A DNA stretch of 32,000 nucleotides from Candidatus Heimdallarchaeota archaeon (GCA_030668875.1 DAOVER010000019.1:1-32000); one strand, 5' to 3'. Positions 12,092 through 20,369 are shown, numbered from the stretch's first letter. Numbers and translations are program-made. The notes: generated from the sequence alone by a model not told the origin.

Positions 12092-12380
12092 ATGTGAAAA
12101 AGTTAAAAAAATATCTTTTATAAATTTCTTTAAGAGATTTTGTATCCCTTTTCTCCATTATTCAATCAGAAATAATAAAGTTGGAAATATAATAAGTTTT
12201 GCTACTCCCAGTATTCGTTATCTGTATAGTCAGATATTACTCCTATTGATTCTGGTCTAAGATGTGATAAAACTGATCCTCCACCTTGAACTATTTCAAT
12301 TTCCATTTCAAGGTATTTCTTTTTAATAAGTTCTGCCATATTTTTGAATAATCAAGTCTGCTTCCATGACGATTGTTATA
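12092..12380 (-). repeat. Direct repeat copy B: degV 3'-end fragment plus ~110 bp of downstream sequence
   Basis: Aligns with 13786-14067 over its length and with degV 19455-19634 in the coding part. Confidence 0.9.
12202..12380 (-). pseudogene. degV 3' fragment, frameshifted
   Basis: Translates to ...NMAELIKKKYLEMEIEIVQGGGSVLSHLRPESIGVISDYTDNEYWE*. It has two 1-nt deletions relative to degV near 12345 and 12367. Confidence 0.88.
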
Positions 12381-12485
12381 CCCTTAGCTCAAACCGTTCT
12401 GTTTTTCTATAGTTGTTTAGAAATTTATTTAAACTAATTCAAAACTTCTTTCAATGGTAATATTTCCAGAAATGAAGCTGTTAAT

Positions 12486-13454
12486 ATGAGTGAATCTAAA
12501 ATCAAAATTGTTGAAGTAATAGATAAAATTGGTCAAGCTAAATGTTGTATGTCTCTAAGAAACATCATGATTTTAGCGATTCTTGCTGGTGTTTATATTG
12601 GTTTTGGGGGGGTATTGTCGATTATTGTAACTCATGATATGCCTGCAAATTTTGGTGTTGGTTTTACACAACTAATTTCTGGTATAGTTTTCTCAGTAGG
12701 ACTGATGTTAGTCGTTTTAGGTGGTGCTGAACTTTTTACAGGAAATAATCTACTAATTATACCTTGCATGGATCGAAAAATAACTCCGTTTCACTTAATT
12801 AAGAACCTTTCAGTGGTTTATATTGGTAATTTTGTTGGTTCTCTTTTATTAGTTGCCATTTTTGTAGGAACAGGAATCTGGAAAAACAATAATTATCTTG
12901 TAGGTGCAAGTTCATTAATAACTGCAAATAGTAAGGTAAATCTCACATTTTTAGAAGCATTTTGTAGAGGAATATTATGTAATTGGTTAGTTTGCTTAGC
13001 TATTTGGATATCTACATCTGCTAAAACAGTAATTGGTAAAATTTTTAGTGTTTTATTCCCAATTATGGCTTTCGTTTCAAGTGGTTTTGAACACTCAATT
13101 GCAAATATGTTTTTCATTCCTTTAGGACTATGGCTGAAAAATTACGATTCAATTGTTTCTGCAGCAGGCTCTCCTGATTTATCGAACCTTACTTGGGGAA
13201 ATTTTTTCTATGGAAATCTTCTTCCTGTTACACTTGGCAATATCTTAGGCGGATTGATATTTGTGGGTTTTCTTTATTGGTTTGTTTATAGAACAAAAGA
13301 CACAATTTGTGGAAGTAGTGATATTCAAAATGGTGAAAAAGATTTGTCTTCCGTAAAAAATAAATCTCAATCTATACCTAATCATATTAGTATAAAAATC
13401 CACAATAACATAAAAAAACGTAAAAACAGTGAGAAATACAAGAAAAAGAATTAA
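12486..13454 (+). CDS. Formate/nitrite transporter (FNT family)
   Basis: LAGVYIGFG, GAELFTGN, YIGNFVG, RGILCNWLVCLA, GFEHSIANMF, VTLGNILGG. It ends in a Lys/Asn-rich tail. Confidence 0.93.
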   Translation: MSESKIKIVEVIDKIGQAKCCMSLRNIMILAILAGVYIGFGGVLSIIVTHDMPANFGVGFTQLISGIVFSVGLMLVVLGGAELFTGNNLLIIPCMDRKITPFHLIKNLSVVYIGNFVGSLLLVAIFVGTGIWKNNNYLVGASSLITANSKVNLTFLEAFCRGILCNWLVCLAIWISTSAKTVIGKIFSVLFPIMAFVSSGFEHSIANMFFIPLGLWLKNYDSIVSAAGSPDLSNLTWGNFFYGNLLPVTLGNILGGLIFVGFLYWFVYRTKDTICGSSDIQNGEKDLSSVKNKSQSIPNHISIKIHNNIKKRKNSEKYKKKN

Positions 13455-13479
13455 AAAATAATTTGTGGTTAGATTCCTC

Positions 13480-13743
13480 ATGGTAGAGATAGTCGCGTTT
13501 TATGCAACACATTGGTGTTCAGCATGTAAAAGATTGGGGAATTTTCTTGAAGATCTTGGAGTAGATGTTAACTGGATTGATATAGATAAAGACAAAGAAG
13601 CTTCAGAAATAGTAATTGAATTAAATAATGGAAAAAGAATTATTCCTACAATAGTTTTTTCCGATGAAACTTTTTTGACAAATCCTGACAAGAACCTAGT
13701 TCTTCATAAGCTAGGTTCGAGTATGTATGATGTGCAACAGTAA
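13480..13743 (+). CDS. Glutaredoxin/NrdH/mycoredoxin-like protein
   Basis: WCSAC (CxxC), DIDKD, GKRIIPTIVF cis-Pro motif. The ATG at 13480 is preferred over the GTG at 13465. Confidence 0.85.
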   Translation: MVEIVAFYATHWCSACKRLGNFLEDLGVDVNWIDIDKDKEASEIVIELNNGKRIIPTIVFSDETFLTNPDKNLVLHKLGSSMYDVQQ

Positions 13744-17781: not shown

Positions 17782-17866
17782 ATCTAATAGTTTTTGATTA
17801 AGAAAATAAAAACATAACCCCCTATGTGTCTTAAATGGTTTCATTATGTTTCAATAAGGTGTTTAA

Positions 17867-19171
17867 ATGGTTAAAGTTTCAAAAGAAAATGTAAAGTACC
17901 TCGCCTTTGAGGGCGGAGGAGGAAAAGGTGTAGCATATATTGGTTCGCTGGAAGTCATGAAGGAACTAGGTATTATATCTTATTATAACAAAGAAAAAGA
18001 TAGTAAAACATATAGAAGAATCAATACTGAAAAAATCAATGGTGTTGCAGGAACATCCGTAGGTTCAATTGTAGCTTTACTTGTAGCTTGTGGATATACG
18101 CCTGAAGAAATGCAAGATATGTTGATGACGAAAATAGGTATAAATATTCTCGACACAGTAGAATTCGGTAAAATGCCTACTATTTATACAGAGGATTACC
18201 AAGACATAGTTATTCAAGATCCAAGGTTTAAAGATATTGAGAAATTCATGAAAGCTTCATGGTTAGAATATATTAAATCAGAAGATAAGAAATTAGGCAA
18301 TTTATTGGAAATACCTGTTAATCGTTTTCAAAGTGGAGGTTTGAAATTTTTTTCATTGATCTTAAAAGGTTTCCTTAGTTATGAATCTAAAAAAACTTAT
18401 TCTAAAGACTCGTCAAGTGAAAATAATATTATCAACATCAAGGAATTAGTTCGTTCAGAAACAGTAAGTCCAGCATTAAAAAAAGTTTTAGAGGAGCCAA
18501 TTCATTCGTTTAATAGTTTAAAATACGAATATGGGTTATTCTTAGGTAAGACAGCAAGAGACATGTTTGATTCATGGATTGAACAAAAGTCTGGAATACA
18601 AAACTGTACATTTAAAATGTTTCAAAAGGAGTTTAATATAGATTTAGTTATACCTGCTGTTAGCGTAAATTCAAAAGAGGTATTCTATTTTAGGAATAAT
18701 AGAAAGTGGAAAGATTTATGTGTAGCAGATGCAGTAAGAATGTCAATAAACATACCTTTCTTGTTTAAGCCTGTGTTAATGAAGAAAACAAAAAAGGGAA
18801 TAAGCTCTGTTACAGATGAGATTCACTTAGCTAATTTTATGATCGATGGAGGTGCAATAAATAATCTTCCTATACATGCATTTGATAAAAAAAGTTCTTC
18901 AAAGTTAAATCCTTCAGTCGTTGGATTTTCTCTAGTACCATATAAGAAAGCAAAGACAACAGAAATTGATTCTCTAACTCAGTATGTTGCTGATATAGGC
19001 TACATAATCCTAAACAATGCAACAAATCTTCAGATTCTACAAGAAGAAGATAGAGATCAGATTGTAGAATTAGATACTAAGGACGTGAGCATTTTTGATT
19101 TCTCATTTGAAGAGATACCAGAAGAAGTAAAACGAGAGTCTAGAGCTAGAACATTAGAATATTTTTCGTGA
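17867..19171 (+). CDS. Patatin-like phospholipase
   Basis: FEGGGGKG oxyanion motif, GTSVG nucleophile elbow, AVRMSINIPFLF, catalytic DGG. Confidence 0.9.
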   Translation: MVKVSKENVKYLAFEGGGGKGVAYIGSLEVMKELGIISYYNKEKDSKTYRRINTEKINGVAGTSVGSIVALLVACGYTPEEMQDMLMTKIGINILDTVEFGKMPTIYTEDYQDIVIQDPRFKDIEKFMKASWLEYIKSEDKKLGNLLEIPVNRFQSGGLKFFSLILKGFLSYESKKTYSKDSSSENNIINIKELVRSETVSPALKKVLEEPIHSFNSLKYEYGLFLGKTARDMFDSWIEQKSGIQNCTFKMFQKEFNIDLVIPAVSVNSKEVFYFRNNRKWKDLCVADAVRMSINIPFLFKPVLMKKTKKGISSVTDEIHLANFMIDGGAINNLPIHAFDKKSSSKLNPSVVGFSLVPYKKAKTTEIDSLTQYVADIGYIILNNATNLQILQEEDRDQIVELDTKDVSIFDFSFEEIPEEVKRESRARTLEYFS

Positions 19172-19454
19172 TTGCATACTTTTCTGAACTGATTAAAAAT
19201 TAATAAGATAATTCATTGTATATTTTTCCTTTATATTACTTAGGAAAAGGAATCTTCAGAAGAGAAAATACAACGAGCTAATATAATGGGAAAGATGAAT
19301 TAGGTTTGAAGATTTTTCTTGAGAAAAAATAGACAAAAGAATAATTCCTGCCCTTGTTTCTCTGATGAAATCTTCTTAGTAAACCATTATAAGAATCAAG
19401 TGGTAAATAAAATTGGTTTGAGTAAACAGACTATAGTTTAATGATTACTTATAC

Positions 19455-20369
19455 TTAATTCCAATATTCATCATCTGTATAGTCTGATATTACCCCTATT
19501 GATTCTGGTCCAAGATGTGATAAAACTGATCCTCCACTTTGAACTATCTCGATTTTCATTTTGGGGTATTTTTCTCTGATAAGATCTGCCATATTGTTTG
19601 CATAATCTAATCTACTTCCATAGACGATGGTTATAGTTTTTGGAACTCTAGAGAACTCATCTGTACTCAGCTTTAATGCTTCTTCGAGACCTCCTTGAAC
19701 ATCAGAAGCTGAACCAACTGTTATAACATTTCCTTCTTCATTCATAGTTACGATGGGTTTCTTTCGCAACATAGCTCCAAGAATGAATTTAGATATTCCC
19801 AGTCTACCTCCTTTCCACAAATATCGTAATGTTGGTAGTAGAATTATTGTTTTAATCTTCAAAGCTTGTTGAGTTAATATGTCAGCTATCTCTTTAGCGC
19901 TGTGTTTCTCTTTTTTAATTAAATTAAGTGCCATTCTTATCAAGAAAACCTCTGGGTAGGACGCAGATAAAGAACTTACTATGTGAATATTTACCTCTGT
20001 AAATTGTTTCATTACTTGTTTTGCAGCTAGACGCGCACTATTGATTGAACCACTTAAACCTGCACTTATAGTGACAACTACGATATCTTTTGTTCCTTCT
20101 TTTATATGCTCCATATACGCATCAAAGTAATCTTTTGGGCTTGGTTGAGATGTTTTAGGTACAAAAGAATATAGATTTAATTTTGGTATGTGTAAAAACG
20201 CCTTCTCATCTTCGAATAATTTGTAGTAAGCATCTCTATCAAAATTCTCGTCTTCTCTTAACTCTTCTTCATGAACAAACATGTATAAACAAGCTATTTT
20301 GACATTGTTCTCCTTAGCAAAATCCCAAGGTAAGTCGGAACCACTATCAGTAACTAAACCAATTGTCAT
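19455..20369 (-). CDS. degV: DegV/FakB-family fatty-acid-binding protein
   Basis: VTDSGSDLP, PKTSQPS, ISAGLSGS, LWKGGRL, KPI, SHLGP. Confidence 0.92.
   Translation of the reverse strand: MTIGLVTDSGSDLPWDFAKENNVKIACLYMFVHEEELREDENFDRDAYYKLFEDEKAFLHIPKLNLYSFVPKTSQPSPKDYFDAYMEHIKEGTKDIVVVTISAGLSGSINSARLAAKQVMKQFTEVNIHIVSSLSASYPEVFLIRMALNLIKKEKHSAKEIADILTQQALKIKTIILLPTLRYLWKGGRLGISKFILGAMLRKKPIVTMNEEGNVITVGSASDVQGGLEEALKLSTDEFSRVPKTITIVYGSRLDYANNMADLIREKYPKMKIEIVQSGGSVLSHLGPESIGVISDYTDDEYWN

Follow-up and report, generated by a model that had tools for sequence, protein, structure and literature searches.

A stretch of 32,000 nucleotides (nt) from a Candidatus Heimdallarchaeota archaeon (GCA_030668875.1, DAOVER010000019.1:1-32000; hereafter the window) carries the gene degV in intact form and, further downstream of it, two additional copies of its 3' end. 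The last ~175 nt of degV are present three times in all, on the same strand each time, and the three ends are referred to as copies A (the end of the intact gene), B and C. Copies A and B are separated by a cluster of genes for PAP2, radical SAM, TetR and patatin proteins (cassette 2), and copies B and C by the genes for a formate/nitrite transporter (FNT) and a glutaredoxin (Grx) (Table 1). An original prediction, which was made from the sequence of the window, had proposed degV as a recurrent integration hotspot at which cassettes were captured serially, either by an integrase acting in trans, leaving an array with gene-fragment att sites, or by homologous exchange among relatives. In this paper, we report a computational analysis of the origin of the two extra degV ends.

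The window covers contig C47 from its start to 32 kb; the contig belongs to a 3.2-Mb metagenome-assembled genome (MAG) in 99 contigs (GC ~31%), which is 92% complete and whose close relatives come from cold-seep or marine sediment. The genus is sampled by 24 species-level genomes in the collection searched. Orthologues of degV, 65-90% identical, occur in 17 genomes of the genus, and ~25 other degV orthologue loci from genus genomes and metagenome contigs were compared with the window. Population data were obtained from Logan contigs of the public runs X1, X3 and X4 (one study) and X5 (another study); 84-96% of the region's words are present in four public runs of one study and only 14% in X5. 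Exact-protein look-ups for degV and FNT returned either the same Logan contigs or nothing. No RNA family was found in an Rfam scan of positions 11900-19700 (E <= 1), and no tRNA was detected in the window by ARAGORN.

Table 1. Features of the degV locus, with positions counted from the first nucleotide of the window.
Feature	Position	Strand	Basis or remark
NAD-dependent epimerase gene, conserved far flank of the variable interval	8200..9156	+	PF01370
Truncated DUF3795 gene, 83 amino acids (aa)	9251..9658	+	Homology stops at codon 71; G009 homologue 161 aa
G002-like block, continuous with the C spacer	9621..12048	-	aor 10270-12048 and 109-aa open reading frame (orf109) 9778-10107
Spacer copy on C, upstream of aor	12087..12201	-	
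Copy C, displaced degV 3' end, ~codon 248 to TAG stop, frame-breaking indels	12202..12384	-	
Identical run of 21 nt, holds the haplotype crossover	12220..12240 = 13912-13932		GTAATATCTGACTATACAGAT
Polymorphic segment, 1692 nt: C head, FNT, glutaredoxin, B spacer, B tail	12241..13932		Logan depth, L084
FNT gene, block II cargo	12486..13454	+	PF01226
Grx gene, block II cargo	13465..13743	+	PF00462; synteny in G002, G016
Spacer copy on B, homologous to the degV-aor intergenic region	13799..13893	-	Alignable with copy C and with the spacer of G002
Copy B, displaced degV 3' end, codon 253 to own TAG stop	13894..14067	-	
orf205 fragment, 70 nt, codons ~8-31 of a 205-aa membrane-protein gene	14063..14132	+	tblastn
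Cassette 2, rare accessory cluster	14306..19237		Pfam
PAP2	14278-15309	-	Pfam
Radical SAM/SPASM	15471-16994	-	Pfam
TetR	17161-17781	+	Pfam
Patatin	17867-19171	+	Pfam
Copy A, last 180 nt of intact degV	19455-19634	-	
degV, intact, 304 aa	19455..20369	-	PF02645, E=5.7e-51

Alignment confirmed the three same-strand 3' ends, together with the in-frame stop of copy B (a TAA at 14011-14013) and the broken reading frame of copy C. The copies are 82% (A-B), 83% (A-C) and 80% (B-C) identical over the last 168 nt, which is close to the ~83-85% that had been counted by hand, and the longest exact matches between them are 26-29 nt. Copies B and C remain alike for ~95-110 nt past the stop codon (13799-13893 and 12107-12201), with 85% identity over 235-280 nt. 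This post-stop stretch matches the degV-aor spacer of the relative G002 and is absent from A, which shares the coding part only. Since B and C share the degV-aor spacer, the unit repeated in them is ~270-280 nt long. The two fragments had also been described as beginning at nearly the same point of degV; their starts are indeed near each other but not identical, with C starting at ~codon 248 and B at codon 253, where it abuts the 70-nt fragment of another gene. An explanation of both boundaries as the edge of a conserved degV block was rejected, a sliding identity profile being without a step at codons 248-253. The 70-nt segment next to B had been considered as an att arm or a small RNA and was identified instead as a fragment of the gene for a 205-aa membrane protein (orf205).

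The three tails encode near-identical DegV C-termini, and the differences between them are concentrated at third codon positions in all three pairs, as the original prediction had anticipated in finding many of them synonymous. By first, second and third position, the differences number 6/3/20 for A-B (third-position excess, P = 9e-5), 9/2/14 for A-C (P = 0.016) and 10/3/19 for B-C (P = 0.002). Because third positions account for most of the differences, it can be concluded that the copies diverged while functional in different genomes. Judged by this pattern, they are xenologous, that is, once-live degV ends of separate genomes that diverged under purifying selection, and the proposal that displaced, once-functional ends of degV delimit blocks of acquired genes is upheld. 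We consider it rather probable that the extra degV ends are scars of homology-driven insertion of relatives' DNA, with no dedicated integrase being involved.

Repeated ends would also result from a local tandem duplication of the region downstream of degV, followed by reciprocal gene loss and decay without any import of DNA. The gene order of G002 (degV-spacer-aor-orf109-Grx-FNT) can be converted to that of the window by duplication and complementary deletions, and a minority contig that joins position 19929 back to 19221 has the appearance of a recent tandem duplication, 709 nt long, of the end of degV. Nevertheless, we regard this alternative as very improbable. The B-C differences are depleted at second positions as well as enriched at third positions, and two dead copies within one genome would not spare second positions in this way. 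Furthermore, segments of the region have different nearest relatives, the closest relatives of the analysed genome (G010 and G021) are without all of the inserted array, and cassette 2 is a second copy (73% identical) of a cluster present elsewhere in the genome and is 86% identical to the copies of other species. Homology-driven insertion of DNA from relatives accommodates these observations, and further evidence on it comes from the sediment populations.

The depth of the Logan contigs falls in the FNT-Grx block. In X1, the depth is 39.4 on the aor side, where the contig ends at 12240, 5.8 in the FNT-Grx block (contig 12211-13660) and 33 from 13903; the corresponding values in X3 are 23.5, 5.5-6.9 and 24.5 (from 13903/13969 onward), and X4 has ~19 on the aor side and ~8 in the FNT-Grx block. 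The first bases of the depth-33 contig that starts at 13903 are C-type letters. Another Logan contig, L084, runs from aor through the C spacer and a C-type tail into B-type sequence, and the switch takes place inside the 21-nt run GTAATATCTGACTATACAGAT that is identical in the two tails. From the low FNT-Grx depth and the hybrid L084 it follows that most cells are without the 1692-nt segment and that a minority, represented by the MAG, carry it. The majority haplotype therefore has one hybrid tail and lacks the FNT-Grx segment, and the window shows the minority haplotype.

A several-fold lower depth of the FNT-Grx block than of its flanks means that the MAG contig follows a minority path, and it could be argued that the contig is an assembly artefact in which strain variants were strung together through the repeated degV end. 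The original prediction had itself named this danger. We consider it extremely improbable, as the exact matches between the copies are far under the k=141 of the project's assemblies and both tails have unique junction sequences. In addition, Logan contigs independently reproduce the end of degV and two junctions, that of C with FNT (12211-13660) and that of B with orf205 and PAP2 (13903-14461).

Within the filled haplotype, both repeats equal the single tail on the outer side and diverge from it on the inner side. Reciprocal hybrids of this kind are the signature left by one crossover between homologues that have diverged. At the sites that distinguish B from C, the B head and the C tail are G002-like (18:11 and 8:4 informative sites), while the C head and the B tail are G021/A-like. 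Insertion into an already displaced tail is favoured because the hybrid tail is the more coherent one and is continuous with the G002-like aor block. The tails thereby suggest that the single-tail haplotype is parental, and about 26:15 sites lean weakly towards insertion rather than deletion as the direction of the polymorphism. A further minority contig of X1, at a depth of 7.4, is the one in which 19929 is followed by 18 filler letters and then by 19221; it suggests a minority 709-nt duplication of the degV end and the downstream spacer, with a boundary at codon ~147.

The interval between degV and the epimerase gene varies widely within the genus, from 29 nt in G020 and 110 nt in G010, where the two genes are directly convergent, to 3-6 kb with other genes in G001, G004 and G015 and 10.3 kb in the analysed genome, and the proposed hotspot downstream of degV is borne out by this range. 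With > and < denoting gene direction, the order is epimerase> FNT> Grx> <orf109 <aor spacer <degV in G002, epimerase> FNT> Grx> beta-lactamase-like> orf205> in G016 and beta-lactamase-like> hydrolase> orf205> <degV in G021. FNT adjoins the epimerase gene in G002 and G016 as a native neighbour, and the orf205 gene neighbours degV in G021, G016, G004 and G020. Hence, the synteny in relatives identifies FNT-Grx, aor-orf109 and orf205 as natural neighbours of degV in the genus and not as foreign cargo.

The nearest relative differs from one segment of the region to the next. The aor block is 92% identical at the nucleotide level to G002 and 77% to G021 and G010, degV is 88% identical to G021 and G010 and 78% to G002, and the orf205 fragment, which abuts the 5' boundary of B, is 91-93% identical to G021 and G016. 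A 370-nt DUF3795 module (9251-9620), consisting of the promoter and the first 71 codons, is 94% identical to G009, a genome whose DegV is only 70% identical. The junctions in the window are abrupt and truncate genes, namely DUF3795, orf205 and both degV tails. The region thus combines DNA of several species in a mosaic. In the sediment runs, the DUF3795 module has ~fivefold the depth of its flanks and loose ends exactly at 9251 and 9620, which indicates that it is common to several community members with different continuations; multiple copies in the analysed genome were considered and rejected, the module being single-copy there.

Cassette 2 is rare in the order, its radical SAM gene being found in 3 of 46 genomes: the analysed genome (twice), G007 and G009. 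The cassette is 86% identical at the nucleotide level to its counterparts in G009 (contig C48) and G007. The second copy in the same genome (contig C3, G000:C3:15876-20386) is 73% identical and lies in an unrelated context, flanked by PadR-like genes in divergent orientation and with no flanking direct repeats of at least 40 nt. The cassette of G009 is situated between direct repeats of ~445 nt (G009:C48 contig L045, 7940-8383 and 13799-14243; 81-91% identical) in which the 3' ends of two convergent genes, one for a PHP-domain protein and one for GDPD, are duplicated. To the left of this cassette, the PHP gene is complete and GDPD is reduced to a 3' fragment; to the right, only a 3' fragment of PHP is left and the GDPD gene is complete. 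The same architecture and cargo are thus found at a different target, which would not be expected of a sequence-specific att system. The PHP/GDPD site is also present in G007, without the full GDPD gene. The ends of the cassette 2 unit coincide with gene ends, and it is precisely at 14306 and 19238 that contigs of other community members part from the window. The three contexts of cassette 2 differ in the final ~9-14 codons of PAP2 (14278-14305), and the left boundary of the cassette therefore lies inside the 3' end of this gene.

Similar loci were identified elsewhere in the genome. A genome self-BLAST detected nine further cases, on contigs C15, C20, C29, C57, C61, C75, C77, C82 and C92, in which an intact gene is followed by 0.6-5 kb of accessory genes and then by a 3' fragment that is 79-90% identical. 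These tails are 105-616 nt long, and the third-position excess is strong at C20 (47 of 66 differences), C92 (38 of 47) and C82 (34 of 50). The cargo of the nine loci includes subtilases, beta-helix surface proteins, a histidine kinase and similar genes, and no recombinase was found in it. Homology-anchored insertion suggests itself as a common route of accessory-gene turnover in this lineage.

The geometry of the degV locus, with an intact gene, cargo and a displaced tail twice over, would also be expected of integrase-less cassettes that carry a degV 3' end as attP and were inserted serially at a degV attB by a recombinase acting in trans. The result would resemble additive genomic islands, or satellite elements, as they occur at tRNA genes. 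The insert is indeed flanked by direct repeats that stem from the target gene's 3' end, the tail boundaries are at most ~15 nt apart, and the crossover run holds a short imperfect palindrome (TATCTG-ACTATA-CAGATA). Other contigs of the genome carry five genes for small serine recombinases, and tyrosine recombinases occur in 12 of the 24 genus genomes, the other half being without a match. Even so, we judge this explanation to be unlikely. The window contains no recombinase, the Pfam matches in the inserts being limited to the transporter, glutaredoxin, PAP2, radical SAM, TetR and patatin. The tyrosine recombinase family PF00589 has no match in the 92%-complete genome, not even of the Xer type, and is present in 14 of 14 control genomes; no tyrosine recombinase was found on the degV contigs of the genus either, and a match to PF07508 in the genome is weak and below the cut-off. 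As to the co-occurring recombinase that was to be looked for, the serine type is thus represented in the genome, away from the locus, but the tyrosine type is not.

Several further results bear on a specific site. The degV-end motif had 0 matches in viral contigs, and an extra degV fragment was found at none of the ~25 other degV orthologue loci; a metagenome scan with the degV alignment returned only 7 orthologous loci, none of which has extra tails. The boundaries of B and C differ, and at one of them degV is joined to part of a neighbouring gene. Tail lengths at the other loci are equally close (within 15 nt) in 7 of 36 pairs, so that the short distance between the starts of B and C does not count in favour of a specific site. 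A palindrome with arms of 5-6 nt is expected by chance in 270 nt. The cargo consists of relatives' native neighbour DNA, without mobile-element hallmark genes, and eleven junctions genome-wide, at unrelated target genes, are without a common motif. An att core, which was to be sought by aligning the copies, did not emerge from boundaries that differ and junctions that share no motif, and the notion of an integrase array with gene-fragment att sites found no support, given the lack of a tyrosine recombinase, an attP, other tailed loci and a common core. An integron was also considered and rejected, there being no tyrosine recombinase and the repeats being gene ends of 175-280 nt, not attC hairpins.

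Homology-driven insertion would begin with an imported piece in which a degV 3' end, with or without the degV-aor spacer, is joined to non-homologous cargo. Such a piece could enter by a single crossover if it were circularised or repeat-bearing (Campbell type, 'insertion with long target duplication'); alternatively, it could do so by homology-facilitated illegitimate recombination (HFIR), and by either route a single degV would remain intact, with a truncated tail on the far side of the cargo. The tails would thus be non-functional ends, imported with or displaced by DNA of related Heimdall-group species, and may then have acted as portable homology arms for further gain or loss. The 1.7-kb FNT-Grx block moved in or out by a crossover in the 21-nt identical run of tails B and C, probably when an FNT-Grx piece with a G021-like tail recombined into an already displaced tail. 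Both the mechanism, whether single crossover or HFIR, and the order of events are what we infer. The features of an insertion with long target duplication are found at the locus, namely long direct repeats, a single copy in the empty state (the majority haplotype and G002) and no mobility genes. The illegitimate joints are those at degV codon 248, ~15-25 nt from the FNT promoter region, and between degV codon 253 and orf205 codon 8. The option of homologous exchange among relatives in the original prediction fits the mosaic cargo and the crossover. The capture was also not simply serial at the live gene, as FNT-Grx probably entered a displaced tail.

A number of points weigh against homology-driven insertion. 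That B and C begin within ~15 nt of each other may point to a preferred site, and the first illegitimate joints are only inferred. No donor genome with a contiguous degV-spacer-Grx-FNT or degV-217 nt-patatin arrangement was found. The circle junction (13932 to 12241) was not seen among the contigs, in which rare forms are not visible, and few informative sites lie behind the direction of the polymorphism. The five serine recombinase genes on other contigs also have to be reckoned with, and in a genome that is 92% complete a recombinase could be unassembled. Finally, we know of no experimental work on recombination in these archaea.

Insertion with long target duplication has been described for restriction-modification units in Helicobacter, Haemophilus, Neisseria and others, in a survey in which no case from archaea was found (Furuta et al. 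2010, PMC2853133). The degV insertions resemble these units in their size of a few kb, the absence of mobility genes and the direct repeats of tens to hundreds of bp, which are single in an empty-site genome and often overlap a gene 3' end. They differ in that the repeats are only ~84% identical, because half of each is xenologous, in that the cargo is metabolic and not restriction-modification, in the host, which is an Asgard archaeon, and in the stacking of two tails. HFIR has been proposed as the mechanism of C-terminal displacement at rhs, contact-dependent inhibition (CDI) and type VI secretion system (T6SS) effector loci (Kirchberger et al. 2017, PMC5361080, citing Jackson et al. 2009, PMC2935791). 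Similarly to those loci, the homology anchor at degV lies in a conserved part of the gene, the other end is joined illegitimately, and the earlier 3' end is displaced downstream, so that orphaned 3' regions come to stand in a row and are able to recombine again. In contrast to them, the degV tails encode nearly the same peptide, so that the end of the gene is not diversified in function, toxin-immunity logic is absent, and the cargo between the tails varies. Direct repeats from the 3' end of a target gene and the stacking of several blocks at one site are also shared with integrative elements and additive islands in which the target's 3' end is reconstituted, such as the tycheposon arrays of Prochlorococcus. 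However, the degV locus is without an integrase, and its repeats are long and diverged instead of being a short exact core. The Asgard mobile elements described to date use integrases at tRNA genes or short motifs; they include the tRNA-targeting HeimV1 and aloposons (PMC8813620) and the integrated elements of Atabeyarchaeia with short att motifs (PMC11529989). At degV, unlike in these elements, the target is protein-coding, the cargo comes from relatives' chromosomes and the crossover falls within an arbitrary stretch of identity.

No known organisms are more closely related to eukaryotes than the Asgard archaea, and to our knowledge their gene exchange is largely unknown. Homology-driven insertion would make this locus a dated, multi-step record of integrase-free gene gain among related Heimdall-group species. 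The type of scar was already known; what is added here is its occurrence in an Asgard archaeon and a mapped natural insertion/deletion polymorphism, the crossover of which can be placed within 21 nt. A rare lipid-related cluster is found between duplicated gene ends at two sites in two species. In practice, displaced tails of this kind may be misread as the att sites of a mobile element, and a MAG can show the minority haplotype.

Beyond being scars, the tails might serve Heimdall-group archaea as functioning elements of a cassette shuttle that needs no integrase, an idea that we put forward tentatively and hold to be less probable than not. Cargo between diverged tails would loop out by homologous recombination, taking one tail with it, and would re-enter the genome of a related species through one crossover, either with the same gene end there or with an old tail. 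If this were the case, much of the accessory-gene flow, at ten or more loci in this genome, would run on host recombination alone.

Apart from the degV locus, the IMP dehydrogenase gene of the window (22964-25744, 926 aa) has an intein with LAGLIDADG homing-endonuclease domains; the Pfam matches of the product are IMPDH, CBS, Intein_splicing and LAGLIDADG_3.

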